Notes: generated by a model not told the origin, from the letters alone. A stretch of 64,000 bases of DNA from an uncultured Verrucomicrobiota bacterium (GCA_937872895.1 CALMUP010000005.1:1-64000), one strand, 5' to 3'; shown: positions 11,396 through 45,754, counted from the first letter of the stretch. Translations and numbers: made by a program.

Positions 11396-11621
11396 CCCGA
11401 CCTATTTCGGACCACCACTCCCGAACAGAAATCAACCGATGATAACTAACCCGTTCCCAAAGAAGGGGTAACGCGATCATCACGTTTTTTCTTTATCAAA
11501 TTATCAATTTTACGCATATCCGGGTACTTTTACAACGGTAGGGCGCGGCGTGGGGCTGCGCGGGAATTTCACGGTCTGTTGGCGGGTACCCAGAATGGAT
11601 AGGGAAAATCAACGGAGGTTC

Positions 11622-14600
11622 ATGGTTTCCGGGGCGCGTACCGCCCTGTGCGGCATGGGCCTGATTCTGGCTTCCACCGTGTTGGCCTCGACCGACTTTG
11701 ATGGCGACGGCTACGACGATGTCTGGCAGCACCGGTACGGGGTGACCATCGCCGCCTTTCCGCCCGATGCCGATAACGACGGCGATGGCGTGAGCAACCG
11801 CGACGAGTCCCTCGCCGGCACCCACCCCGGTGATCCAACCGAAGCGTTGAAGGTGATGGATGCCACCCCCGCCGGCACCAACCTGACCCTCGAGGTCGCC
11901 GCCAAACCCGGTAAACGCTACCAGCTCCAATCCATCGCCCCCGGCGAACTCACGTGGACCGACGAGGAAGCGGTTATCTCCGGCGAAGGCGCCCTGGTCC
12001 CGTTGTCCGGCGCCCTGGCCGATCCCGCCCGCTTCTACCGCGCCACCACCCGCGACCAGGATTCCGACGGCGATGGCGTGTCCGACTACGCCGAGGCGAT
12101 CCTCGGCACCGACCCACACGCCGCCACCAGCCCGGACAATGCCTCCGGCGGCGCCGCCAACGACCTCGAAACCCTGCGCAGCCTGCTCTCCGTCACCGCC
12201 TCGGTCATCACCCCCGACGCCTACCGCAAAGAGGGCACCGCCGCAGTGATCCGCATCACCCGCACCTACGGCACCATGCCGCTGACCATCCCCTTCGTGA
12301 CCAGCGGATCCACCAACGCCACGAAAGGATCCGCCACGCCGTCCGACTTCGCCCTGGTCGGTGCCACCCTCTCGAACGTGGCCTTCGCCGCCAACGAATC
12401 AACCCGCGACCTCTTCGTGCATCCACAGCTCGCCACCGGCGCGAAGGTGCCGCGCACGTTGCGGCTGACCCTCCAACTGACCGGCGACCAGCCGGCGACC
12501 AACGCCCCGGTGGTCGCCGTGCAGATCAAGGACGCCACCGCCACGCCGCAGAACCGCCGCCTCTACGTCGCCTACCTCGGCCGCGAGGCCGGCGTACCCA
12601 CCACCGCGTCCGGTGTCGCCACCGCCCTCGTCGAGGGCGACAACGATTCCGCCGCCATCAACCTCACCTTCGCCAACCTGTCGTCCGTGCAGAACAACGC
12701 CTACATCCGCCTCGGCACCGGCCTCGACGTGCAGTTCATCCCGCTTGGCCAGGTGTCGGGCTTCACCTGGTTCATCCGCGCGAAGCAGTACCTGCTGACC
12801 GACCAGGCCATGCTCGACGCCCTCGCCGCCGGCGAACTGTTCGTCAGCGTATCCAGCGCGAACTTCCCCTCCGGCGAAATCCGCGGCACCTTCCAACTCG
12901 CCAACGGATCGATCGCCGATCCGCCCGCGCCCCCGGCCCCGCCACCCTACCTCGACCCGGCCTTCCCGAACCTCGCCGCCTCCGGCGTCACCAGCAATAC
13001 CGCCCTCGACCGCGACATTGCCCGCTTCCTGATGCAGGCCTCCTTCGGCCCGACCACCGAAAGCATGCAGGAGGTGCGCGACCTGATCGCCGCCCACAGC
13101 AACAACATGCTCGCCGGCTACGCGGCCTGGATCGACCGCCAGATGGACCTCGCCCAAACCCCCTCGCCCTCGCTGCGCAAGCTGGTGCAGGCCGCCGATA
13201 CCGAGGAGTACATCCTCCGCAACAACAAGCCCGTCACCTACAACAGCGACCCGCAGTTCGGCGGCAACTCGTTCCAGTTCTCCACCTCGAGCCGCCTGTG
13301 GAACCCCGACTCGATCCACCAGAACAACTATCCGTTCTCCAGCAACCTGCGCCGCGAATGGTGGACCCTCGTGCTGAACAGCCGCGACCAGCTCCGCCAG
13401 CGTTTGGCCATGGCCCTGCACGAGATCGTGGTGATCTCGACCGACAACTCGACCGTCGACGACTACCACTACGGCACCGCAGGCTACTGGGATATGCTGG
13501 CCACGAACGCCTTCGGCCCCTACCGGACCATCCTCGAGAAGGTCACCTACAACCCGCTGATGGGCGTGTACCTGAGCCACCTGAAGAACCAGAAGAAAAC
13601 CGGATCGATCAGCCCCGACGAGAATTTCGCCCGCGAGATCATCCAGTTGTTCTCCGTCGGCCTGATCCAGCGCCACCTCGACGGCAGCCTGAAGCTCGAG
13701 CCGCAGACCGCCCTGCCCATCGCCACCTACGACCAGAACGATGTCACCGAAATGGCCCGCGTCATGACCGGCCTGAGCTTCGGCTACGTGAACACCCCGG
13801 TGACCAACGCCCCCACCTACCCGACCCCGAGCACCCAGCGCATCGGCCCGGAAATCACCAACAACAACTTCTTCGCCAGCAACGGCCACCGCATCTGGCA
13901 AGCCCCCTGGACCAGCGACATGGCCCTGTTCGCCGCCTACCACGACTTCAACGAGTACACCGCCTACACCGGCCTCCCCCTGCCCACCGGCGTGGTCTCC
14001 GCCTCGAAAATCCTCTTCCGCGGCAAACCCGGCCAAACCATCATCCCGCTGCGCGCGACCAACGACGCCAACGGCCGCCTCGATATCGCCGACGCCCTCG
14101 ACGCCCTCGCCAACCACCCGAACACGCCCGTCTTCATCTCCCGTCTGCTCATCCAGCGCTTCACCACCGCGAACCCCAGCGCCGGCTACCTGCACCGCGT
14201 CGCCACCACCTACCAGCAATCCGGCGGCAACCTCGGCGAGACCGTGAAGGCCATCCTGCTCGACCACGAGGCCCGCAGCCTGGACATCGCCGACGGCATC
14301 GCCACCGCCGGCAAACCCAAGGAACCGCTCCTGCATTTCCTCGCCATGGTGCGCGGCCTGAAGTGCCTCACCGGCGCCCCGCTGTCCGCGCTGGCCACCA
14401 TGCCCGTCACCTTCACCGCGATCGAGTCGCCCCAAACCACCGCCTACGACCCGGCGGAATACGCGAAGTTCCCCACCAACAGTTGGCGCTTCCGCTGGTT
14501 CGATACCACCTCCGGCCTGACCCAGACCCCGCAGTCCGCGCCCTCCGTGTTCAACTGGTTCCTGCCCGACTTCATCGTGCCCGGCCCGCTGGCCGAAGCC

Positions 14601-15272
14601 GGCCTGGTCGCCCCCGAACTGCAGGTCGCCACCGAGGGCAACGTGGTGAACATCCTCAACTCCCACTACAACCTGCTGTTCACCTCCATCCCGCCCGGCA
14701 CCACCAACGAGCCGGGCATGAGCCTCGACGACTTCCGCTGCCTTGCCCAGTACCAGACCGCCGGCGGTTCCCAGTTGTCCGTCCCGCAGTACGCCGTCGA
14801 TGCCGGCTACTTCAGCGGCACCACCTTCGATGCCTCGCCCGGCGGCACCGGGGTGCCCAACACCATCGACAGCGAACGCGACAACGTGCGTCCGGATTTC
14901 ACCGAGCTGACCACGCTGTACTCGAACGTGTACATGCAGACCATGGCGGCGATCTATGCCCCCGGCGCGGTCCCGGCCTCGCCCATCAACACCAACCGCT
15001 TCGCCGCCCACACCGCCGCCGCCATCGCCGTGATCGACCAGTGCGACCTGCTGTTCGCCGCCGGCGCGCTGAAGGCGAAATTCGGCGACCTCCCCGCCAC
15101 CACCCCGAACCCGCGCCAGGCCATCATCGATGCGCTGCGCAGCGGCCGGATCGGCAGCACCACCTCCTTGCCCGCCGACACCAGCAACGGCTTTGAACGC
15201 AACGCCCAGACCCGCGTGAAGAACATCGCCTACCTGGTCATCACCTCACCACCGGCCATCATCCAGCGCTAA
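11622..15272 (+). CDS. DUF1800-domain protein with N-terminal Ca-binding (thrombospondin-type-3-like DxDxDG) repeats and a CHRD domain
   Basis: RBS GGAGG then ATG 11622; signal peptide; repeated D.D.DGDGV.D motifs; CHRD-like segment (..GE.RG.F); long C-terminal region matching DUF1800. It immediately precedes a DUF1501 gene, the canonical pairing. Confidence 0.8.
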   Translation: MVSGARTALCGMGLILASTVLASTDFDGDGYDDVWQHRYGVTIAAFPPDADNDGDGVSNRDESLAGTHPGDPTEALKVMDATPAGTNLTLEVAAKPGKRYQLQSIAPGELTWTDEEAVISGEGALVPLSGALADPARFYRATTRDQDSDGDGVSDYAEAILGTDPHAATSPDNASGGAANDLETLRSLLSVTASVITPDAYRKEGTAAVIRITRTYGTMPLTIPFVTSGSTNATKGSATPSDFALVGATLSNVAFAANESTRDLFVHPQLATGAKVPRTLRLTLQLTGDQPATNAPVVAVQIKDATATPQNRRLYVAYLGREAGVPTTASGVATALVEGDNDSAAINLTFANLSSVQNNAYIRLGTGLDVQFIPLGQVSGFTWFIRAKQYLLTDQAMLDALAAGELFVSVSSANFPSGEIRGTFQLANGSIADPPAPPAPPPYLDPAFPNLAASGVTSNTALDRDIARFLMQASFGPTTESMQEVRDLIAAHSNNMLAGYAAWIDRQMDLAQTPSPSLRKLVQAADTEEYILRNNKPVTYNSDPQFGGNSFQFSTSSRLWNPDSIHQNNYPFSSNLRREWWTLVLNSRDQLRQRLAMALHEIVVISTDNSTVDDYHYGTAGYWDMLATNAFGPYRTILEKVTYNPLMGVYLSHLKNQKKTGSISPDENFAREIIQLFSVGLIQRHLDGSLKLEPQTALPIATYDQNDVTEMARVMTGLSFGYVNTPVTNAPTYPTPSTQRIGPEITNNNFFASNGHRIWQAPWTSDMALFAAYHDFNEYTAYTGLPLPTGVVSASKILFRGKPGQTIIPLRATNDANGRLDIADALDALANHPNTPVFISRLLIQRFTTANPSAGYLHRVATTYQQSGGNLGETVKAILLDHEARSLDIADGIATAGKPKEPLLHFLAMVRGLKCLTGAPLSALATMPVTFTAIESPQTTAYDPAEYAKFPTNSWRFRWFDTTSGLTQTPQSAPSVFNWFLPDFIVPGPLAEAGLVAPELQVATEGNVVNILNSHYNLLFTSIPPGTTNEPGMSLDDFRCLAQYQTAGGSQLSVPQYAVDAGYFSGTTFDASPGGTGVPNTIDSERDNVRPDFTELTTLYSNVYMQTMAAIYAPGAVPASPINTNRFAAHTAAAIAVIDQCDLLFAAGALKAKFGDLPATTPNPRQAIIDALRSGRIGSTTSLPADTSNGFERNAQTRVKNIAYLVITSPPAIIQR

Positions 15273-15286
15273 CGGGGCCCCACCGC

Positions 15287-16948
15287 ATGCACCTGAACAT
15301 CAAGACCAAGACCACCCCGAGCCACATCACCCGGCGGCAATTCATGATCCGCGGCGGCTGCGGCCTGATGAGCCTGACCAGCCTGGTGAACATCCTCGCC
15401 CAGCTGAAACTGATGCAAGGCGTGGTGAACGCGCAGGGCGCGCCGACCGACGACTACCGCGCCCTGGTCTGCGTATTCCTCGCCGGCGGCAACGACTCGA
15501 ACAACCTGCTGATCCCCTTCTCCGGCACCGCCAACACCCACTACACCACCAACCGCGGCGCCCTCGCCATCCCCGTCTCCGGCCCGAACCCGCTGACCAA
15601 CCTCGCCAACACCCAGCTCATCACCAACCCCGCCCACATCACCGCGGCCGATCCGCTCGGCGGCTACCTCGGCACCTTCGCGGTGCATCCGCTGTGCGGT
15701 GCGATCCGCGACCTGTTCAACGCCGGCGAACTCGGCTTCGTGGCCAACGTCGGCACCCTCACCCAACCCGGTATCACCCGCGCGACCTACGCCAGCTCGT
15801 CGAAACCGCCGCAACTGTTCTCCCACGCCGACCAGGTGACCCAGTGGCAGAGCAGCGTGCCCGACCAGCCGTTCACCAGCGGCTGGGGCGGCCGCATCGC
15901 CGACCTGATCAACCCGACCGCCAACACCGCCAGCGCGGCCTCGATGTCGATCTCCATCGCCGGCGTGAACAGCTTCCAGGTCAGCCCCACCGGCGCGGTG
16001 AATCCCTATGTAATGCGGAGCAACGGACTGGTCAGCCTGAGCGGCTACGGCACGAACTACTCGGACGCGCTGTTCGATTCGACGGTGAATTTCCAGGACT
16101 CGAACTACCGCTCCACCGAACGCGGCCAGCGCCTGCGCGCGTTCGAGCACATCCTGCAGTTGAGCGACATCAACCTGATGGAGAACGCCTACAAGGGCAT
16201 CGTCACCAGCGCGCGCCTGACCGAGTCGGTCGTCGGCCAGGCCCTGCTCGCCACCGCCGCCGGGAACGGCACCACCCTCGACACGCACTTCAACAACGCC
16301 TTCGCCAACGCCGAGGCGGGCATCACCGCGAACAACGACTTCACCAACCAGATGAAGATGGTCGCGCGCCTGATCGCCGGTCGCTCCTCGCTCGGCAACC
16401 AACGCCAGATCTTCTTCGTCCAGCTCGGCGGATTCGACACCCACACCACCCAGATCCCCACCACCGGCAACCAGTACGCCGGCGGCCACACCGGCCTGAT
16501 GAACGTGTTGAGCCGCACCCTGAAGGCCTTCCGCGACTCGCTGCAGGCCCTCGGCGCCTGGAACAACGTGGTCACCTTCTCCGCGTCCGACTTCACCCGC
16601 ACCTTCACCGCGAACAAGCTCGACGCCAGCGCGGGCAGCGACCACGCGTGGGGCGGCCACACCTTCGTGATGGGCGGACCGGTGGCCGGCGGGCGCATCT
16701 ACGGGAAATTCCCGGTGCTGCTGCTCGGCAACGCCGCCGGCAGCATCGACGCCACCGGGTCCAGCGGTCGCTGGATCCCCAGCACCTCGGTCGACCAGTA
16801 CGCCGCCGTGCTCGCCCACTGGCTCGGGGTCAGCACCACCGACCTGCCGGAAATCTTCCCCAACCTCACGCGCTTCACCGCCGCGCCGTTCACCGACATC
16901 CTGCTGCCCAACCAGACGCCCAACCTCGGTTTCCTCAACACGCTGTAA
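15287..16948 (+). CDS. DUF1501-domain protein (sulfatase-like fold, Tat signal)
   Basis: Tat motif TRRQFMIRGG; DUF1501 features (..FLAGGNDS.N..IP, ..GGFDTH.., ..SDHAWGG..); 15 bp after the DUF1800 gene. Confidence 0.85.
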   Translation: MHLNIKTKTTPSHITRRQFMIRGGCGLMSLTSLVNILAQLKLMQGVVNAQGAPTDDYRALVCVFLAGGNDSNNLLIPFSGTANTHYTTNRGALAIPVSGPNPLTNLANTQLITNPAHITAADPLGGYLGTFAVHPLCGAIRDLFNAGELGFVANVGTLTQPGITRATYASSSKPPQLFSHADQVTQWQSSVPDQPFTSGWGGRIADLINPTANTASAASMSISIAGVNSFQVSPTGAVNPYVMRSNGLVSLSGYGTNYSDALFDSTVNFQDSNYRSTERGQRLRAFEHILQLSDINLMENAYKGIVTSARLTESVVGQALLATAAGNGTTLDTHFNNAFANAEAGITANNDFTNQMKMVARLIAGRSSLGNQRQIFFVQLGGFDTHTTQIPTTGNQYAGGHTGLMNVLSRTLKAFRDSLQALGAWNNVVTFSASDFTRTFTANKLDASAGSDHAWGGHTFVMGGPVAGGRIYGKFPVLLLGNAAGSIDATGSSGRWIPSTSVDQYAAVLAHWLGVSTTDLPEIFPNLTRFTAAPFTDILLPNQTPNLGFLNTL

Positions 16949-17568: not shown

Positions 17569-17583
17569 AATTCCTGGAAACAC

Positions 17584-17610
17584 AAACCGGCCGGCTTTCC
17601 AAGGTCTGGA
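17584..17610. repeat. Partial (27 nt) copy of the groEL terminator/att sequence (copy A)
   Basis: aaaccggccggctttccaaggtctgga is identical to the starts of the 160-bp repeats at 18391 and 25763, then diverges; corresponds to half of the terminator hairpin (break in the loop). Confidence 0.8.
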
Positions 17611-17670
17611 CCGCCTCCTTGACACACGTACTATGGTCACACATACTATGTGGATACCTGGAGCTTTCTC

Positions 17671-17898
17671 ATGAAAAACGTGACCCTTGCCATGGACGAG
17701 GATTTGCTGGAGGCCGGACGGGCCTATGCCCGGGCCCACAACACCTCGCTGAACAACCTGATCCGGGAGTCCTTGCGCCGGACAGTGATCAAGGAAGCAC
17801 GCGCGACGTGGGCCGGCGAGTTCCTTGCCGTGGCCGACAAGGTAAAGGGCGACTCGCGCGGCAAGACCTGGAAACGGGAGGAGCTGTACCGTGGCTAA
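17671..17898 (+). CDS. Type II antitoxin (VapB-like)
   Basis: Small ORF (MKNVTLAMDEDLLEAGRAYARAHNTSLNNLIRESLRR) typical of antitoxins; overlaps the downstream PIN gene by 8 nt. ATG 17671 preferred over GTG 17650. Confidence 0.6.
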   Translation: MKNVTLAMDEDLLEAGRAYARAHNTSLNNLIRESLRRTVIKEARATWAGEFLAVADKVKGDSRGKTWKREELYRG

Positions 17899-18310
17899 GC
17901 GCGGCAAGGTGTTCATCGACACCAACCTGTTCATCTACGCGTTGGACCGGCGTGTTCCCGCCAAACGCAAGGCGGCCGCGAAGGCGTTGCGCGCGATCGA
18001 GGCGGAGGGCAACGGGGTGGTTTCCACCCAGGTGTTCCAGGAGGCGTACGTCGCGGGCACGACCAAGCTCGGTATCGCACCGCAGGACATGAAGCAGGCC
18101 ATCGTCTCCCTGCGCACGCTCGAAGTGGTGCAGGTGGATGTCGACCTGATCCAGGCCGCCATCGACTGCAGCATCCTGCAGCGGCTCTCCTTCTGGGATT
18201 CCCTGATCATCGTCGCCGCCGAAAAAGCCCGCTGCACCGAACTGTGGACCGAAGACCTCAACCACGGCCAACGCATCCAAGGCATCCGGATCCACAACCC
18301 GTTCATGTAG
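17891..18310 (+). CDS. vapC: PIN-domain toxin (VapC-like)
   Basis: PIN-domain residues (FIDTNLFIYALD ... TEDL..); overlaps the upstream antitoxin; GTG start. Confidence 0.8.
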   Translation: MAKRGKVFIDTNLFIYALDRRVPAKRKAAAKALRAIEAEGNGVVSTQVFQEAYVAGTTKLGIAPQDMKQAIVSLRTLEVVQVDVDLIQAAIDCSILQRLSFWDSLIIVAAEKARCTELWTEDLNHGQRIQGIRIHNPFM

Positions 18311-18380: not shown

Positions 18381-18428
18381 TCGATACAAAAAACCGGCCG
18401 GCTTTCCAAGGTCTGGAAAACCGGCCGG
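18381..18428 (-). terminator. Duplicated copy of the groEL intrinsic terminator
   Basis: On the minus strand: CCGGCCGGtTTTCCAgaccTTGGAAAgCCGGCCGG followed by TTTTTTT. Confidence 0.7.
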
Positions 18429-18550
18429 TGAATCAGAACGCGTTCGCGTCAGATCTTAGTACATGTCGCCCATGCCGCCGCCCGGTGGCATGGCGGGAGC
18501 TTCCTTCTTCTCGGGAATCTCGGTGATCATGCACTCGGTGGTCAGGAGCA
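18391..18550. repeat. 160-bp direct repeat, left copy (attL-like); terminator plus 3' end of groEL
   Basis: 100% identical by eye to 25763-25922. Confidence 0.9.
18456..18550 (-). pseudogene. Displaced groEL 3' fragment (last ~31 codons, ...[13 protein letters not shown])
   Basis: Identical to the real groEL 3' end at 25828-25922; lacks the rest of the gene. Confidence 0.85.
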
Positions 18551-18579
18551 AGACGAAACTCGACCCAACAAATTGAGCA

Positions 18580-21500
18580 TCACATTTTGATCGTTTTTTG
18601 TAACCAGTCGCCCTGAAGGATTAACTTACCACCGGACAGAAGCAGATCTATTTGGCTGTCAATAAGCTCCCTAAGCGCAGGCCCAGTAACGCTGAAGCCG
18701 AGAAAACGAGCTACGGCACTGGGTAACTCCTCACGGCGAGCACCATGCCCTGCATCTACAAACACCATAATTGCCTCCTGCACTTCAGGTGGTGGCAGGT
18801 ACTCGGGCTTCCTCAGTGTCGAGGAAGAAGTGCTCACCCGACTTCTGGGCTTAACCGGTGCACCCGGGATACTGAGGAACCCATTACTACGAACGCATCG
18901 CTTTTGGGTTAACAGTGTATGCACGGAATTTCCTACGGCGCTTTGAATTCGCGCTCCAGCCCGACTCAGACCCCACAATCCGCGAATGCGCACGACAACC
19001 TCATCTTCATGAATGGGTCCTTCAATGCTCACAATCCGGTGAACGATATCTCCGAGCTCTCGGGGGGACAGAAGATGGATTTCTTTTTTCGGCACCGCGA
19101 ACTTGGCTTCCTCATAGATAACTGCCGTCAATTCGGATGATCGTTCGTCTTTCGAAATGGCCAACACCTCACGCGAAATACCTGCGTCATCGCTAGCCGA
19201 TACTCTGACCGATACGATGGGCGCAGCGGCTACCTCTTCGCTTTGTGCAATATTTTTAGCTTTTTGAATTGCTGACTGGATTTTCCGGAGCTCATCAGTT
19301 CTACGCTGGAACCAATCCGTGCTCCATACCCGATGAATGATCCATCCATGATTCTCCAGGACCGCTTGCCGAAGCCGATCGCGCTCTCTCGCTGAACGCG
19401 ATGAATGGTATGATGCCCCATCGCATTCGATCCCCAGTATGTATCGGCCATGCAACTCCTGATCAACGACGGCAAGATCGATAAAAAATCCGGCAATACC
19501 GACCTGACTATGAACCTCGTAACCCAACGACTCTACAGCGCGGCGAATGGACTCTTCGAGGGGCGATTGCTCCAGCTTGCCCGAAGGTGCCGCCAACGAC
19601 ATACGACCCGTTCTTGCGAAGGAAAGAAACGCCTTTAATGCTGCCACACCCCGACCAGGTGCGCGCTCAAGATCAATTTGATCCTCGGTTATGCTTGAAA
19701 AGACTTCACATCGCGTTTTGGCGCGCGAGATCAGGACGTTTAAACGTCTTTCCCCACCCTCGGCATTGAGCGCGCCAAACGTCATTGCCATGTACCCGTT
19801 TTCATCAGGGCCATATCCTACCGACAAAAAAATAACATCCCGCTCATCACCCTGAACGTTTTCCAGATTCTTGACAAAAAACGGTTCAGACTCGTGACCA
19901 TAGAAGAAACCTTCGAGGTCTGGGTGCTCGCGACGCAAGAGTTCCAGTTCATCCAGGATGGCCTGACGCTGTTTGATGGAGAATGCGGCAACGCCTAAGC
20001 TCAATTGCGGCGTTTTTCGCGCATGCTCAATTACCGCCTTGGCAACGACCCTCGCCTCAACGCGATTAACGGCAGCACGACCACGCTCAAAGACTCCATC
20101 AGGAACATGGTTGAATTTTAGCCCAAGACCAGCAGCTGCGGAATGTGGACTGGGGACAATAAACAGGCGGTCCTCATAGAATTCATGGTTCGATACGGCA
20201 ATCAGCGTATGATGCCGACTTCGGTAATGCCAGCGAAGCATTTTGGAGGGGATCCCGCGCGCGAGGCAAAGACCGAGAATACTCTCCATGTCGCCAGCTT
20301 GTACAATATCCTGAGGGACCTCCTCGTCCTCTTCTTCAGATCCGTTCGTCATTCGCTGGAAAAACCGGGTTGGCGGAAGCTGTTTGCTATCACCCACGAC
20401 AACAATCTGTTTGCTTCTCGCAACTGCGCCCAGCGCATCAACGGGTTGAACCTGACTCGCCTCGTCAATAACCAGTAAGTCAAACTCGACAGCACCCGCC
20501 TCAAGAAATTGCGCGACGGATAGAGGACTCATCATAAACACGGGTTTAATGGCCTGAATGACTGAACCGCAGTCTTTCAGCAAACGCCTAACCGGGCGAT
20601 GCCCGCGCTGACGCTCCATTTCACCGCGAAGGATTCCCGAGGGCCCCACCCCAACGAACGCTGGCATCTTGCTGAAATGAGCATGCAAGACCCGGTACTT
20701 GGCAAGCGTCAGTCGCGCTTTATCCATTTCCTTGAAGTCGTTTACATGTGTGTTGTGCAAGGCGCCATCAAACCGCGCAATGTTCGGCTTATCCTTGACG
20801 ATTCGCCGAAAGATTTCGGCATAATAGGCATGGTCGAAAACCGCACCGGCAACTTTTGGCGTAAGCCGGCCGGAGTCGAGCTCCGTAACGATGGGTGAAA
20901 GCCCGTTTTCAAGCGCGTCTCGGCGTAGCAAGTAGTATGAATTCCATTCAGAAAGCGAATCAAGCCTGATGAGCCACGTAGCGCCACGATCGCGCAACAT
21001 ACTCAGGGGCACATCTTCCTGCTGAATAACATTAAACGACTCCTGCCAATCAAGCCTTAACTCGGCCTCCACAACCGATCGAGCCGCGCAAAATGCTGCA
21101 GCCTTGGCGCGTACAGAGTCAACTGTGGATCGCAACGCTTCAGGACGCTCCTGGACTACCGCAAACACCTCGCGGAAATCAGCGTCCAGTCCGACCGCCT
21201 GCTGTTCATCCACCCACTGAATGATTGCATGAAGCTTTTCACAATCCGAGTCCGCTCCCTGCCAGTTCGACCCGAACACGGCACGTCCATATTCCTCGTT
21301 CGCGGTGATTTCCTTGAGGATGCGCTGCCCCTCGATGATTTGATCAACTCGCCCGAGAAGATTCCTGGGCAGCTTTGTGGATGGATTTTTCAGCGCACCA
21401 CGCAAGGTGGCCACCGAACGTCGATAACTCCCATTCAGGAATCGGAAAAATGAAGTGCCGTGAGATGCAACCGGACCCCGAACATCAGAGAAGTCTTTTT

Positions 21501-23361
21501 GCCAAGCATCATCCACAACAAGCGGTTCCACATTGCGAAGTTCTTTATAGCGCTGAAGGCTCGCCACCAACTTTATGATTTTGTCGCCGTCGGTATCCCA
21601 TGCCGGGTTCTTGATTGCGCTTCGATCAAGGTATTCCGGGGCTTTCGCCATAAACTCCGCAATTACACAGTATGACTCCACTTCCGTCGTTGAATCGGGA
21701 ACATCCTGCTTAATCATGGAAGCTAGTCGGCCGGCCTCAGCCAGAAGGGTTTGCAGGTGCTCGTTCATCCTCGCGATTACGTCGCGAATGCCGGTTAGAT
21801 CTATCTGCAGCACGGTTTCTCGACGGACGCCACGCCATAGGTGCTGGCACGGGGGGCCGATATGCTCTATTCGACTGACGACCTGCTGGAGCAACGATCG
21901 GCGCAGAGCGGCCACATCGGCGTTCCATTCGGGAGCATCGGGAAGCGACAATCGTGAATATTCAGAAGGAACATCCGGGAGTGCGGACAGGGCTCCCATC
22001 GCGCGAAAGGCCGATACATTGGTGTTTCCGTACGGTTCGTGCAGAGTGTTGCTATGCATCGACAACACACTACGCAGGCGCTCGAGTTTAGGTAGAATTG
22101 ACTCCAGTTTCGCCATGTCGGGACGGGTTAACTGCCAGGTCCGCCCGATTTCGTTAATCACCGCTCGCTTGCTGGTCTTGTTGCTGTGCAGCTCAAGGCA
22201 AAGATCGCCAAGCCCTTCTCGCTCCATACGTCGCTTAACGACCTCAAGTGCGGCCAGTTTTTCGGCTACAAAAAGCACTTTCTTTCCATCCATCACCGCC
22301 GTCGTGATGATATTGGTAATCGACTGACTCTTCCCTGTCCCGGGCGGCCCCTGAATAACCAGCAGTTGATTTTTGCGAACGGTCTCGATGGCAATGGCTT
22401 GCGAACTGTCGGCATCGACGACGTGGTCTAATCGGTCCACAGAAATCAGTTCATCAAGATTGGCATTGTCGGGAATCGGATCGCCCTTTACGGCAAATCC
22501 ATCCTGCAAAAGCCCTGTAATCAGTGGGTGACCATGAATCTTCTTTTCACCCGGCCAGCTCTCTGGATTCAGGTCACGGTACATCAGGAATTTCGCGAAG
22601 GAGAAAAAGCCGAGCGTAATGGCGTCCGGAAGGACTTCCCATCGTTTGGCCGACTCAACCACCCGCGCCACCGATGCGAAATACTCGGCAGGCACAAGTG
22701 ACTCCTCGTCTGGAAAGGATGGCAGGGTAATTCCGAATTCGGCCAACAGTTTTTCGGAAAGCGAGTAATTCTGGAGAATTTCCTCTTCCCTCCAGCGCAA
22801 GATCAAGCGATCCGACACCGTCCGACGACTTAACTCGACCGGGACCAGAATCAAAGGAGCAAAGCGCTCTATATCCGAAGATTCACTCTCGAACCACTTC
22901 AGTTGCCCCAGGGCCAGGTACAAGACATTAACGCCTTGTTCTTCGATCATCGCCTCTGAGTCACGGTACAAGTCGATCAATCGGCGCTGTAACCCCTCGG
23001 GCGAGAGTGCGGTCTGCAGCCGTAGATCAATATGCCGCTTGGCCGTGCCATTTGATTCAATCTCATCCTCGTTCGGAATCGGCACACCAATTTCGTCATC
23101 GGCACCCTCCTCGCCCTCTTTATCCTGACCATCCTGCTCTTTCTGCTTGCCGGGGAGAAAACTCAGCGCCTTTTTCTCGGTCACGAGCAGGCGATACACC
23201 TCGGAGGCCTGTTCGTCATAAACATTGACAAATCGGCCTGTTTTTAGCGGGATCGACAGCAACCTGTTGCGGCAGGACAAGTCGAGCAATAACCGGCGCG
23301 CCTGATTAAGGATTTCCAGCGATTTAGATCCCATAGCTGGCAAACTTAATGCAGCGTACAC
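18580..23361 (-). CDS. DUF4011 / SF1 helicase (AAA_11 + AAA_12) / Vsr-DUF559-like endonuclease / DUF3320 protein (Hhe-like architecture)
   Basis: N-terminal DUF4011 signature (..[15 protein letters not shown]..); Walker A '[11 protein letters not shown]'; helicase C-terminal '[16 protein letters not shown]'; Vsr/DUF559-like nuclease core '..FFIDLAVVD....[43 protein letters not shown]'; DUF3320-like C-terminus. Start may be ATG at 23334 rather than GTG at 23361. Confidence 0.85.
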
Positions 23362-23608
23362 ACCCCGCGCAACACTAGTCTTCTGGAGCGCAAGTGGCCA
23401 ACCTATAGATAAGACATCTCACACCGCGTGCGTTTGCAGTACAGGCAAGAAAACATAGAATAAAATGGATCCATGAAGGAGGAATCCTAAAAGTCTGACC
23501 TGCCTAGAAGTCGGTAGATCCTCACGTCTCGCAGAACTCATTTCGACGTTTTCACCCGCGCTTCAATACTCTAGTTATTGAAACCTTGTGGCCAGTCCCT
23601 GCGCTGCC

Positions 23609-24265
23609 CTAACTTCGACATATCACCAAATCTACGGGCACAACTCCTTCTATCGTTTTGATGAAATTGTCAACACGAGCATCGATGATAACGATGTCTT
23701 CTTTAATCCAGCCGAAATAGGATTTCTGTTGTTTCGTGAATCCAACATTCTGCATGAAGTCATCAATTTCGTTGTCGCTTGGGTGAGGAGATTTCTGGTC
23801 CATAGCAGTCCACCAAGGCTGTGAAATTACGAAACTCGGCTGATGACCATTTGCGGTAATCAAAAGCGATTTTCGCATTAGCAATCCTTCCAGACGTATA
23901 TCGGAGCGGAAAATCTCGTTCATCAACTGGATTCGCTGAAGATAAAATAATGGCGTCGCAGCCTTTTGAACGCCTTTCGGTTCTGGTGTTACGCCGAAAC
24001 ATCCGGCATAGGTTATTTTGAGAGCACGATTATCTGAAGTGCGATGAAACACCTCATGTTCGGCGGTAGCGATACCGTATTTTTTAAGTCCCTCGCAACA
24101 TCCCAAGGAGAGTACCGCGTTTTCAGCGGTTGCCCATTTGATTATACAATCGCTTTGTCGGTCAATTTCTTGCGAATCGCAATTGATGCCGACATTTGTA
24201 TATCCACTTGTTCGGAGGTAGGTGGCGGCTGATGCCGCAAGGCATCCATTTGTTGAATTAACCAT
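23609..24265 (-). CDS. Hypothetical protein (island cargo, 218 aa)
   Basis: Coherent ORF in the low-GC island; no recognisable domain. An in-frame stop lies 3 codons upstream of its ATG, so it cannot be a simple frameshift continuation of the upstream ORF; overlaps that ORF by 124 nt. Confidence 0.45.
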   Translation of the reverse strand: MVNSTNGCLAASAATYLRTSGYTNVGINCDSQEIDRQSDCIIKWATAENAVLSLGCCEGLKKYGIATAEHEVFHRTSDNRALKITYAGCFGVTPEPKGVQKAATPLFYLQRIQLMNEIFRSDIRLEGLLMRKSLLITANGHQPSFVISQPWWTAMDQKSPHPSDNEIDDFMQNVGFTKQQKSYFGWIKEDIVIIDARVDNFIKTIEGVVPVDLVICRS

Positions 24266-24897
24266 GATGGAGCACTAGGTTTTTGAGCGGGATCAAGATG
24301 AGTAACCTCCGCCTTGTTCCAAAATTCTTCAAACCGGGCCTCCAAGTCTCGTCCCATTTGGGGCTCATTGAAAAAAACCTCGGCTTTGATCGTGTCCGCC
24401 GGGCTATCCGGTGCCAATTCACCGTGCAGCTTCTCTAGACGGACTATTTTGGAGTCGCACACAATGAAATGTTGCAGCTTTTCCTTTGCCTTTAGCCGTG
24501 CAAGGGTGAACGTGCCTGCGAATTCATGCGCAAGTGCCACTAACCATTCAGGATAATCCGGCGCAATTACAATCATGCGGGCTGTACCGCTTGCTTTTTG
24601 TACGCGTTGCAATGCATCCGTCAGATGCCTCAACAAAGCAGCGTAAAAGCCACCGCAACCGCATCCAGTAACAATATTTATGCTTTTGTGCGTGTGAAAA
24701 AGCATCGTCTCTGTGTATTCCAGAGCGTCAGGATAACAATCGTTTTCCAACTTAATGGTCTCACCCTTCTCGAGGACAGCACCGACAATATCTTTCAAGC
24801 AGTGAGACGGATTGGCAGCTTTCGCCTTATAATTTGAAATCGCCTGCGCGATTGTCATGCTTCCCGCTTCATTTCTTTGTTGCTGGCTCATCATCAA
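24142..24897 (-). CDS. Hypothetical protein (island cargo, 251 aa)
   Basis: Coherent ORF in the low-GC island; Gly/Cys-rich segment IVTGCGCGGFYAALL; no recognisable domain. Confidence 0.5.
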   Translation of the reverse strand: MMMSQQQRNEAGSMTIAQAISNYKAKAANPSHCLKDIVGAVLEKGETIKLENDCYPDALEYTETMLFHTHKSINIVTGCGCGGFYAALLRHLTDALQRVQKASGTARMIVIAPDYPEWLVALAHEFAGTFTLARLKAKEKLQHFIVCDSKIVRLEKLHGELAPDSPADTIKAEVFFNEPQMGRDLEARFEEFWNKAEVTHLDPAQKPSAPSWLIQQMDALRHQPPPTSEQVDIQMSASIAIRKKLTDKAIV

Positions 24898-25751
24898 CCC
24901 TTTTCACTCAAAAAAGAGACGCGCTTGGTATCAAAAATGCTCAAAAAGGCAGTACAAAAACGACTATGCTTCAGCGCAAGAATGGGGTAAGCACAAAATC
25001 TCGTGTACAACCCTATGGAATGCATTCGTGTACCAGTAATTGGCCATGGTATTTCCCATCGATACACTTATAGACTAAACACATTTACATACTAATCGAG
25101 CATAGCGCAGAGTAAAGGGAAAATGGGCTACCATTGCTCAAAATTACTCTGACGAGTGGCTTGGATTCTTTACCTCGCTTCACAAAGTTGACAACAAAGC
25201 CCCAAAAAGTAATACATAATTCACACGTATTCAAATACTTGCAACAAGAATGCCCCCTCGACAACTCAAGGCTACCGCGTTGAGTATCCGCCTACTGGAG
25301 CAAGAGCACCCACGCAACATGATAGCCTAGTTCTGACAGTGTTTACTTCGCTGCGGCAAGTATGGGCAAATCCTTCACGTTCGCCTTGATGACCAGCCGC
25401 ATCAAGCAGGCGGCTAAAAGATTCTTCACCTTACCGGACGTCCACTATTGGGCCTTGACCGACGACATCGCGACGATCCTCTCTTGGCTTTCCCAATGGA
25501 AGCACCCGCCCCCGCCCAATCAAGAAAGAAGATCCATTCAACGCAAAATGGCATGGCGTTTCAATTACCCCGAAACGGGATTGTCTCACCTGTAACATTC
25601 TGACTTGCAATCAAATGCGACTTTCCGGCATTCGTTGTGACTGTATCGACATAAACACGCTCACCAAACAAACTTCAGGGTTCGCGCCCACTATGAATCC
25701 AAAGCTGGATCGTTGCATCTCTCGACTATTTCCAATAAACCATCTTCCAAG

Positions 25752-25800
25752 TCTTGTAAAACAAACCGGCCGGCTTTCCAAGGTCTGGAAAACCGGCCGG
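25752..25800 (-). terminator. groEL rho-independent terminator
   Basis: Minus strand: CCGGCCGGtTTTCCAgaccTTGGAAAgCCGGCCGG followed by TTTGTTTT; 28 nt after the groEL stop. Confidence 0.8.
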
Positions 25801-25827
25801 TGAATCAGAACGCGTTCGCGTCAGATC

Positions 25828-27456
<1,629 letters not shown>

Positions 27457-27544
27457 GTTTCTATACTCCTGTTAGTGATGATGACATTGCTGCGTGCGCG
27501 GCTCACCCGGAGGGTTCGCCCGGCATTCAGCATGATCGAATGGG

Positions 27545-27832
27545 TTAGTCGAGGATCCCGAGGATGTCTTCCTCGCGCACGATCTGGTAATCCTTGCCGT
27601 CGAACTTGACTTCGGTGCCGCCGTACTTCGGCATCAGGACCTTGTCGCCCTTCTTGACGTTGAAGGGGATCTTGTTGCCCTTCTCGTCCAGCTTGCCGGT
27701 GCCGACCGCGATCACGGTGCCCTGCTGGGGCTTTTCCTTGGCGGTATCGGGAATGATGATGCCGCCCTTGTTGACTTCCGACTCCTTGAGGGGCTCGACC
27801 AGAACGCGGTCGCCCAACGGTTGTATCTTCAT
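27545..27832 (-). CDS. groES: Co-chaperonin GroES (Hsp10)
   Basis: [14 protein letters not shown]... 95 aa; AAGGAG RBS; the ORF-track N-terminal extension is spurious. Confidence 0.95.
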
Positions 27833-27916
27833 GTGCTGCGTACTCCTTCTTTCGTTTGGATGATGTGCCATGAACCCGCATCCCGGCGGCACCCGCCGCC
27901 GGGTTGCGGAAATCGG

Positions 27917-29860
27917 TTACTTGTTCTTCTTGTCGTCGTCGACCATCTCGAAGTCGGCGTCGATGACGGTGTCGTCCTTGCCCTTGGCTCCGCCCGCGGC
28001 GTTGCCGCCCGGGGCGCCGGCGGAGGGACCGCCGGGTTGCGGACCCGCGCCCGGGGGCGGGGTCTGCTTGCTGTAGAGCTCGGTGCCGGCGGCCTGCAGG
28101 GCGGTGGTCAGGGCCTCGAGGTCGGCCTTGATCGCGTCCGGGTTGTCGGTCTTGATCGTTTCCTTGAGCTTGGCGGCGGCGGCTTCGATCTTGCCCTTGT
28201 GCTCGGCGGAGATCTTGTCGCCGTTGTCCTTGAGGAACTTCTCGGCCTCGTAGCCCATGGCGTCGGCGCGGTTGCGGGACTCGACGGCGTCGCGCTTCTT
28301 CTGGTCGTCGCTGGCGTGGGCCTCGGCGTCCTTGACCATCTTCTTGATCTCGTCCTCGGAGAGGCCGCTGTTGGCGGTGATGGTGATCTTCTGCTCCTTG
28401 CCGGTGCCGAGGTCCTTGGCGCTGACGTGGAGGATGCCGTTGGCGTCGATGTCGAAGGTGACCTCGATCTGCGGCACGCCGCGCGGGGCCGGGGCGATGC
28501 CGGCGAGGCTGAAGCGGCCGATGGTCTTGTTGTCGGTGGACATCTTGCGCTCGCCCTGCAGGACATGGATCTCGACCTGCGGCTGGTTGTCGGCGGCGGT
28601 GGAGAAGATCTCGCTCTTCTTGGTCGGGATCGTGGTGTTGCGCTCGATAAGCGGGGTGAAGATGCCGCCGAGGGTCTCGATGCCGAGGGTCAGCGGGGTG
28701 ACGTCGAGCAGGAGCACGTCCTTCACCTCGCCCTTGAGCACGCCGCCCTGGATGCCGGCGCCGACCGCGACGACTTCGTCGGGGTTCACGCCCTTGTGCG
28801 GCTCCTTGCCGAAGAACTTCTTCACGACTTCCTGCACCTTGGGCATGCGGGTCATGCCGCCGACGAGGATGACCTCGTCGATCTGCGCGGCGGTCAGGCC
28901 GGCATCGCGCAGGCAGTTCTCGACCGGGCGCAGCGAACGCTGGATCAGCTCATCGACGAGCTGCTCGAGCTTGGCGCGCGACAGGGTGACGGTGAGGTGT
29001 TTCGGGCCGCTGGCGTCGGCGGTGATGAAGGGCAGGTTGATCTCGGTCTGCTGCGAGCTGGACAGTTCGCACTTCGCCTTCTCGGCCGCTTCCTTCAGGC
29101 GCTGCAGGGCCATCGGGTCCTTGGAGAGGTCGATGCCGTTCTCCTTCTTGAACTCGGAGATCAGCCACTCGATGATGCGCTCGTCGAAGTCGTCGCCGCC
29201 GAGGTGGGTGTCGCCGTTGGTGGCCTTGACCTCGAACACGCCGTCGCCGATCTCGAGCACGGAGATGTCGAAGGTGCCACCACCGAGGTCGTACACCGCG
29301 ATCTTCTCCTCCTTCTTCTTGTCGAGGCCGTAGGCGAGCGAGGAGGCGGTCGGCTCGTTGATGATGCGGAGCACCTCGAGGCCGGCGATGCGGCCGGCAT
29401 CCTTGGTGGCCTGGCGCTGGCTGTCGTTGAAGTAGGCCGGCACGGTGATGATCGCCTGGGTGATCGTCTCGCCGAGGTAGGCCTCGGCGTCCTGCTTCAG
29501 CTTCTGCAGGATCATCGCGGAAATCTCCGGCGGTGAATAGACCTTGTCGGCGATCTGCACGTGGGCGTCGCCGTTCGGGGCCTTCACCACTTCGTAGGGG
29601 ACGCGCTTCTTCTCGTCGCTGATCTCGTCGAACTTCCGACCCATGAAACGCTTCACGGAGAAGATCGTGTTCTTCGGGTTGGTCACCGCCTGGCGTTTCG
29701 CCGCCTGGCCGACCAGCCGCTCGCCACTCTTCGAAATCGCCACGATCGACGGCGTGGTGCGACCGCCCTCGGCGTTCGGAATCACCACCGGCTCGCCACC
29801 CTCCATGATCGCCATGCAGGAGTTCGTCGTACCCAAATCAATACCCAAAACCTTTGACAT
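27917..29860 (-). CDS. dnaK: Molecular chaperone DnaK (Hsp70)
   Basis: [22 protein letters not shown]...; full-length Hsp70. Confidence 0.97.
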
Positions 29861-45678: not shown

Positions 45679-45754
45679 TGGTGGAGCGGAAGGGAGTTGA
45701 ACCCTCGACCTTCTCATTGCGAACGAGACGCTCTCCCAACTGAGCTACCGCCCC
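45679..45754 (-). tRNA. tRNA-Ala (anticodon CGC), CCA encoded
   Basis: Minus-strand GGGGCGGTAGCTCAGTTGGGAGAGCGTCTCGTTCGCAATGAGAAGGTCGAGGGTTCAACTCCCTTCCGCTCCACCA; folds as a cloverleaf with G3:U70 and anticodon loop TTCGCAA. Confidence 0.85.

Follow-up and report, generated by a model that had tools for sequence, protein, structure and literature searches.

What does a very large helicase-nuclease gene do when it stands alone on a low-GC island next to groEL? The question is raised by a 64,000-nucleotide stretch of DNA from an uncultured Verrucomicrobiota bacterium (GCA_937872895.1, CALMUP010000005.1:1-64000), referred to below as the window. An earlier note, made from the sequence alone, had read the open reading frame (ORF) at positions 18580-23361 as an island-borne defence gene matching the single-gene anti-phage system Hhe. 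Our analysis leads to a related reading. The gene probably encodes a stand-alone helicase-nuclease of the Hhe/ProA/PDC-S37 superfamily, which was acquired with an island and likely acts as a single-gene system against phages or other invading DNA. We give this reading a probability of about 65%. We infer the defence role from homology, and we also infer the DNA target and the trigger of the enzyme. The gene would probably be a defence gene of a known kind and not a new kind of system.

The domain content was determined by a Pfam search. Residues of Pfam domains are numbered from the GTG codon at 23361 (1593-aa numbering; aa, amino acids), and residues of motifs are numbered from the ATG codon at 23334. 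DUF4011 covers residues 25-205 (137.8 bits, E 4e-40). It is followed by AAA_11, AAA_19 and AAA_30 at about residues 320-380, a second AAA_11 match at 957-998, AAA_12 at 1037-1221, the MTES_1575 restriction endonuclease (REase) domain (PF18741) at 1269-1365 (116.8 bits vs a cut-off of 38.2 bits, E 4.5e-34) and DUF3320 at 1435-1474 (51.5 bits). These matches are far beyond chance. They confirm the four-part architecture given in the earlier note (DUF4011, SF1 helicase, Vsr-like nuclease, DUF3320), and all the peptide strings quoted there were found in the translation. The note had described the nuclease as DUF559/Vsr-fold. The Vsr-like fold was upheld by the MTES_1575 match and the DUF559 label was not, because DUF559 (PF04480) gave only a weak match overlapping MTES_1575, with 19.4 bits and thus under its gathering threshold of 20.6 bits. 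MTES_1575 is therefore the correct label. The gene and its parts are as follows.

18580..23334, minus strand: helicase-nuclease coding sequence, 1584 aa plus stop codon, from the ORF list and translation, with the probable start codon
22420..23334, minus strand: N-terminal domain with DUF4011 (aa 1-305), predicted mixed alpha/beta fold, no solved relative
22183..22419, minus strand: first part of helicase domain RecA1, matched by Pfam AAA_11/AAA_19/AAA_30 and by IGHMBP2, Sen1 and Upf1 in the PDB
20590..22182, minus strand: all-alpha insert of 530 aa (aa 385-915) between Walker A and Walker B, a family-specific region
19660..20589, minus strand: remaining helicase core (aa 916-1225), with the C-terminal part of Pfam AAA_11 and with AAA_12
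19267..19557, minus strand: Vsr-like PD-(D/E)xK nuclease of the MTES_1575 type (Pfam PF18741)
18583..19137, minus strand: C-terminal tail (aa 1400-1584) with Pfam DUF3320

The set of SF1B/Upf1-like motifs is intact and conserved across the family, comprising Walker A, Walker B (DExx), motif III and motifs V/VI. Walker A (GPPGTGKS) is located at aa 329-336 (nucleotides (nt) 22327-22350) and is invariant in 36 homologues. The remaining helicase core contains Walker B (DEASQ) at 957-961, a 12-residue motif at 978-989, QGDERD at 1161-1166 and a 14-residue motif at 1193-1206. The nuclease residues are D1286, E1303-C-D1305-G (nt 19417-19428), Y1309 and H1334-R-x-W-x-x-D1340-W; of these, D1286, E1303, D1305, Y1309, H1334 and D1340 are likewise invariant in 36 homologues. 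A sequence search of the PDB returned the Upf1-like SF1B helicases IGHMBP2, Sen1 and Upf1 as the only solved relatives, and these matched at the motifs only. A partial match to TIGR00376, the IGHMBP2 family, was obtained in NCBIfam. The 530-aa insert was modelled with a predicted local distance difference test (pLDDT) score of 87.6, and its matches were generic helical bundles only. For the tail, two winged helix-turn-helix (wHTH) domains overlapping DUF3320 have been described in MTES_1575, the prototype (Anantharaman et al. 2013, PMC3710099). The predicted structures delimit the domains of the protein and do not reveal what it would sense.

The maximal ORF (18580..23361, minus strand) has 1593 codons counted from GTG and zero internal stops in the ORF list and translation, in agreement with the open frame of 1593 aa claimed earlier. 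The start codon is probably ATG at 23334 (1584 aa) rather than GTG at 23361, because a 99%-identical homologue of 1584 aa (P0001), encoded on the metagenome contig L001, begins at the counterpart of this ATG, and because DNA homology to this sister contig starts at 23354, i.e., downstream of the GTG. The gene is preceded by an intergenic region of 245 bp and followed by a terminator with a 17-bp stem, which was found by a terminator scan. More than 100 homologues of 1570-1600 aa can be aligned with the protein from end to end, and conservation extends to every catalytic motif. For this reason we call the gene intact, and the earlier remark that it looks intact and free of frameshifts holds good.

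The protein was then assigned to a family with the PADLOC and NCBIfam profiles. The best and only full-length PADLOC model was PDC-S37 (1812 bits, E = 0), in which residues 16-1588 align with positions 8-1545 of a 1550-position profile. The PADLOC Hhe model (PDLC02194) was the second-best match, with 749 bits in two stretches. In NCBIfam, the best-scoring named family was the ProA equivalog (NF058533, "anti-phage protein ProA"), with 1470.4 bits vs a cut-off of 1500. Its alignment is continuous, placing residues 17-1557 on positions 359-1902 of 1903, and it includes the middle insert and the DUF3320 tail. The NCBIfam Hhe equivalog (NF042953) gave 1024.5 bits in three stretches vs a cut-off of 2000. 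Relatives that are 55-57% identical to the window protein pass the ProA cut-off (1501.5 bits for P0007 and 1519.8 bits for a Ralstonia protein), and on the Hhe profile relatives score about 1018-1081 bits. Judged by these scores and by its partial identity to Hhe, the protein is a Hhe homologue with a common core architecture, not a Hhe orthologue, and its place is in a sister clade (PDC-S37, borderline ProA). The match to Hhe proposed in the earlier note is thus retained as homology, with 37-41% identity and the same order of core domains. It is not retained as identity, since PDC-S37 is the best model and the Hhe cut-off is missed. The note had also stated that a PADLOC assignment to a different family would speak against its proposal. 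Such an assignment was obtained, formally, though the family in question is a sister of Hhe.

Experimental support within the superfamily comes only from Hhe and, apparently, ProA. Hhe was reportedly first described by Gao et al. in 2020. The reference protein is annotated by PGAP on a Klebsiella IncFIB plasmid (L010, 5413-11148), where its gene adjoins a type I restriction-modification system and two DUF262 genes. The hhe gene of E. coli shows 99.8% DNA identity to the Klebsiella gene and is accessory, being present in 309 of 5426 complete genomes. Hhe confers protection from lambda, T3, T7 and PhiV-1 phages, and a nuclease-site mutant is inactive (bioRxiv 10.1101/2022.06.16.496414). According to a knockout screen, Hhe seems to be triggered not by one protein but by what the class II DNA-metabolism genes of T7 do. 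Co-expression of Hhe with one gene of phage Bas63 is toxic (bioRxiv 10.1101/2024.10.10.617714), which is compatible with an abortive component. We also observed that the published inactivating substitution E1731A does not map onto the reference: the glutamate of the ECDG motif is E1725 in the 1911-aa PGAP protein, or E1729 if the only upstream in-frame ATG is used. The published construct may start elsewhere, or another hhe allele may have been used.

The family of the window protein is large. The homology search returned at least 7,951 clusters at E <= 1e-10. Nearly all of the top 120 clusters have a length of 1570-1600 aa and identical Pfam content. Among these 120, the relatives with a named source and 50-57% identity come from Nitrospirota, Acidobacteriota, Chloroflexota and Verrucomicrobiota, and such identity across phyla points to horizontal spread of the family. 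Alignments of 114 and 36 members showed that conservation runs over the full length, with catalytic motifs that are invariant or nearly so.

In the window, the gene is horizontally acquired and lies on an island inserted at the 3' end of groEL. A low-GC segment is bounded by a direct repeat of 166 nt, whose two copies are identical at 164 of 166 bases. Each copy is made up of the final 95 nt of the groEL coding sequence and the groEL terminator hairpin. The island and its borders are listed below.

18551..25756, no strand: island interior, 7,206 bp, GC 0.51 vs 0.643 in the rest of the window
18385..18550, no strand: distal repeat copy, an orphan groEL fragment with terminator (18393-18429), which terminates the helicase gene
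25757..25922, no strand: proximal repeat copy, the functional groEL 3' end with terminator (25765-25801)

The GC content at third codon positions (GC3) is 0.56 in the helicase gene and 0.43 and 0.49 in the two island genes upstream of it. It is 0.83-0.95 in groEL, dnaK, DUF1501, DUF1800 and the neighbouring PIN/RHH pair. The earlier description of the gene as island cargo is thus borne out, and exact borders can now be given. Neither an integrase or recombinase domain (Pfam, island ORFs tested), nor a tRNA (tRNA scan), nor an Rfam match was found in the island. Between the island genes and the groEL terminator there is an AT-rich stretch of about 860 bp (24898-25756, GC 0.46) with no convincing ORF and no Rfam match that would indicate a non-coding RNA. 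It may be a decayed recombinase gene or a regulatory region. The arrangement as a whole points to the groEL 3' end as a site of insertion or exchange.

Contig L001 carries the same helicase gene, intact and with 98.6% DNA identity, followed by a matching groEL fragment. As in the window, it is placed between groEL and the toxin-antitoxin (TA)/DUF1501 genes. The cargo up- and downstream of the helicase gene is different and includes a Glycos_transf_3 gene and a Zn_ribbon_Top1 gene. L001 has repeats of its own, namely two copies of the groEL 3' end, three of the hairpin and two of a 300-nt flank. Homology between the window and L001 breaks off at the 5' edge of the helicase gene, and the conserved unit is therefore the helicase coding sequence with the groEL fragment and the terminator. 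The groEL genes themselves were also compared. Their bodies (5444-7158 in L001 and 25743-27456 in the window) have only 83% DNA identity, although the genomes are otherwise about 98% identical, and the last 95 nt or so, which belong to the repeat, are about 99% identical. The gene upstream of groES is an aminotransferase gene in L001 and dnaK in the window. This pattern suggests either an element-borne repeat segment or an exchange of the left flank by recombination.

The gene neighbourhoods of the family were analyzed at 40 non-redundant loci, taken from metagenome, plasmid and viral collections and carrying full-length relatives of 30-99% identity, and 332 neighbour ORFs within 6 kb were clustered. 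No conserved partner gene was found among the 40 loci. As no neighbour cluster occurs at more than 5 of them, the analysis supports a stand-alone gene. The largest cluster, at 5 of the 40 loci, is a small upstream ORF, which is restricted to distant relatives of 30-32% identity. In that subgroup the helicase gene is immediately preceded by a conserved ORF of about 70-160 aa, which is absent from the window. It may be a partner or regulator in the distant clade. A conserved small gene beside a DUF4011 gene is also mentioned for P. aeruginosa (PMC10250203). The five copies of the small ORF are at the following positions.

L035, 2492-2704: small upstream ORF
L047, 9673-9933: small upstream ORF
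L053, 9753-9965: small upstream ORF
L093, 9730-9948: small upstream ORF
L036, 1697-2170: small upstream ORF

One relative is surrounded by numerous transposases, YD-shell toxins and TA modules. Another has a gene for an AAA_13 ATPase as its neighbour, which speaks for a defence role, as do the neighbours at some loci that match PADLOC models for Old, SspH, PDC-S02, PDC-S06, PDC-S11 and PDC-S18. In IMG/VR, five contigs carry long relatives near phage tail and lysis genes, an integrase, a NERD gene and a BREX system. On the contig with the BREX system (L096, 1804-16458), genes for a PglX-like methylase, PglZ and BrxL are directly upstream of a 37%-identical relative, and a radical-SAM gene comes after it. 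This arrangement corresponds to the published right core flank of cDHS1, a core defence hotspot of P. aeruginosa at which the DUF4011 gene is one of the core genes (PMC10250203). Because the order of the helicase and radical-SAM genes is that of the published core flank, we discounted the BREX adjacency as evidence for a defence island.

Besides the helicase gene, the island contains two genes upstream of it, and a VapBC-like TA pair lies just outside the distal repeat.

23609..24265, minus strand: 218-aa Kinase-PolyVal-like gene, co-cargo, PF18762 with 27.2 bits vs 27 (marginal)
24142..24897, minus strand: 251-aa ORF with TTG start, co-cargo, no family match
17650-17898: RHH/DUF6364 gene of the VapBC-like TA pair
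17891-18310: PIN gene of the VapBC-like TA pair

The 218-aa gene has 25 homologues, most of which match PF18762, and those named by organism are all from Verrucomicrobiota. The closest homologue on a long contig (L012) resembles a moron and lies in a Mu-like prophage, with the terminase on one side and the Mu-portal gene on the other; another is found inside a TA-rich island. None of the libraries Pfam, PADLOC, NCBIfam and PHROGs returned a match for the 251-aa ORF. The 3' end of this ORF shares 124 nt with the next ORF at its maximal extent, and a miscall of one of the two start codons is therefore probable. Both genes were considered as partners of the helicase and rejected. They are absent from L001 and are therefore regarded as independent cargo, neither has a PADLOC match, and the kinase-like gene occurs alone elsewhere. 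The TA pair is flanked by copies of the groEL-terminator hairpin at 17574-17610 (a third, partial copy) and 18381-18417. In L001 one hairpin copy runs straight into the downstream flank without TA genes, and hence the pair looks like a separately inserted cassette. The host backbone is represented by a DUF1800/DUF1501 pair and a dnaK-groES-groEL cluster (window 11550-16948 and 25828-29860). Such DUF1800/DUF1501 pairs are typical of Planctomycetes and Verrucomicrobia. The sole tRNA gene of the window, tRNA-Ala(CGC) at 45679-45754, is distant from the island.

Taken as an anti-invader enzyme, the protein could work as follows. The SF1B Upf1-like motor would load onto a nucleic-acid strand and translocate along it 5'->3' at the expense of ATP; this polarity is the one suggested by the matches to the Upf1-like family. 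Phage replication or DNA metabolism would expose the substrate of the motor. Substrate sensing or autoinhibition may be the task of the DUF4011 domain, the 530-aa helical insert and the winged-helix tail. The motor would then deliver or license the Vsr-like nuclease, and the MTES_1575 domain (D1286, E1303, D1305, H1334) would cut DNA. As a result, the invader would be destroyed, or the infection would be aborted where cutting is indiscriminate.

Several observations weigh against a defence function of this gene. The association of the family with defence islands is present but modest, and the counts are without a background control: strong PADLOC matches were obtained for only about 6-8 of 150 sampled neighbours (PDC-S02, PDC-S06, PDC-S11, PDC-S18, Old, SspH and a few helix-turn-helix regulators). 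Pfam assigned the neighbours mainly to housekeeping enzymes and to three DDE transposases, and relatives are often found among housekeeping genes such as ilvD, carB, guaA, ftsK, thiG and murJ (ilvD, carB and guaA at one locus, ftsK and ahpC at another). Neither of the other two island genes has a PADLOC match, so they are not recognisable defence genes. The island context, which the earlier note had taken as support for a defence role, keeps only a weak value as such, given these two genes and the mixed neighbourhoods of the family. The window protein scores below both curated NCBIfam cut-offs and has no counterpart of the first 358 or so positions of the 1903-position ProA profile. A full-text literature search found no publication defining the name ProA, so that the ProA identity depends on the NCBIfam name alone; it also found no paper mentioning PDC-S37 and no experiment on PDC-S37 or on the window protein. 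For the N-terminal domain and the insert no informative fold match was found, which makes the sensing step speculative. Finally, a 1854-aa relative is conserved on Ralstonia megaplasmids, and a DUF4011 gene is core in P. aeruginosa, where it is present in every isolate (PMC10250203).

The last two points agree with the alternative of a genome-maintenance enzyme, which would process stalled forks, R-loops or damaged DNA for the benefit of the cell and not for immunity. We consider this unlikely. It is in line with the Upf1-like relatives found by sequence match, as IGHMBP2, Sen1 and DNA2-type enzymes are maintenance factors. The family comprises very many members of uniform length, which are strongly conserved along all 1,580 aa, and the many loci embedded in housekeeping genes agree with such a role as well. 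However, the gene is clearly foreign in the window, as seen from its GC3 (0.56 vs about 0.9), the direct-repeat borders and the variable cargo next to it. The family has a patchy distribution among taxa, and identity is 50-57% across phyla. Hhe, the closest homologue that has been characterised, is an accessory anti-phage gene. In addition, in several Ralstonia records the stretch matched by the helicase gene includes an annotated IS5-family transposase. If this is an insertion in the gene, the helicase is dispensable in those Ralstonia.

A second alternative is a conflict between mobile elements or the upkeep of the island itself: the enzyme would destroy plasmids or competing islands, or it would be a toxic, addiction-like module that stabilises the groEL-linked island. 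The island has no integrase and adjoins a VapBC-like TA cassette, and relatives are found beside transposases, YD-shell toxins and TA modules and on conjugative plasmids. A self-harming output is plausible because Hhe is toxic when co-expressed with a single phage gene (bioRxiv 10.1101/2024.10.10.617714). On the other hand, no cognate antitoxin or immunity gene is conserved alongside, and the demonstrated phenotype of Hhe is anti-phage. We consider this alternative quite unlikely. A further idea bears on the site more than on the enzyme. The groEL terminator region may be a dedicated cassette-exchange hotspot, at which integrase-less modules (helicase-nuclease, VapBC, kinase-like gene) are swapped at the hairpin and groEL-fragment copies, with recombination taking place at the 37-nt terminator hairpin and the 95-nt groEL 3' fragment carried by each module; the ProA-like short clade, with its truncated N-terminus, would then be functionally distinct from Hhe and ProA in trigger or target. 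We regard this as very unlikely. It is hardly credible that the gene is no longer functional and decays as passive cargo of a degraded island, for although the island lost or never had an integrase, about 860 bp of it are non-coding and the score is just below the ProA cut-off, the 4.75-kb reading frame is uninterrupted, every catalytic residue agrees with the family consensus, homologues align end to end, the gene is equipped with an upstream region of its own (245 bp) and with a strong terminator, and the L001 copy is 98.6% DNA-identical and intact.

The preferred reading therefore remains that of a stand-alone anti-invader helicase-nuclease. If active, the enzyme is one more representative of a very large, almost uncharacterised helicase-nuclease superfamily, here in an environmental lineage that is probably Verrucomicrobiota-like. 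The gene does not alter the present knowledge of defence systems. It would be convenient to clone because it is a natural cassette with defined borders. Compared with Hhe, the constant parts are DUF4011, the motor and the Vsr-like nuclease, and the variable parts are the helical insert, DUF3320 and the N-terminal extension. The specificity for the trigger probably resides in these variable parts.

Among known systems, the island resembles att-flanked, integrase-less island remnants similar to cis-mobilisable elements. It shares with them direct repeats carrying a second copy of the target gene's 3' end, a foreign composition, tandem repeat copies and, in the sister genome L001, different cargo. 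It differs in its target, which is groEL and not a tRNA or tmRNA gene, and no integrase or excisionase was found in the island ORFs. The Upf1-like SF1B helicases (IGHMBP2, Sen1, Upf1) match the protein at the Walker A region and the motif II-III region only. Their 1B/1C-type accessory domains are not recognisable in the window protein, which has the 530-aa helical insert instead and, unlike them, a fused nuclease. With the MTES_1575-type conflict proteins, the window protein has in common the SF1 helicase, the Vsr-family REase and the two wHTH domains overlapping DUF3320 (Anantharaman et al. 2013, PMC3710099). MTES_1575 itself has additional transglutaminase and HEPN domains (PMC3710099), neither of which was detected by Pfam in the window protein. 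PDC-S37 is a single-gene "phage defence candidate" of PADLOC-DB v2, predicted by genomic association and not validated, and its single-gene organisation agrees with the 40 loci without a conserved partner.

The closest comparison is with Hhe. A Pfam search of both proteins showed that Hhe likewise has, in one gene, DUF4011, a split SF1 helicase (AAA_11/AAA_12) and a MTES_1575 Vsr-like nuclease, in this order. The two proteins have 41% identity over the last 610 aa, which comprise helicase and nuclease and in which IECDG of Hhe aligns with ECDG, and 37% identity over 476 N-terminal aa. Their middle regions align only in short, insignificant patches. Hhe is longer (1911 aa), with an insertion inside DUF4011 and a middle region of about 300 aa more, and it has no Pfam DUF3320 match. 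Like the window gene, Hhe stands alone on mobile or accessory DNA.

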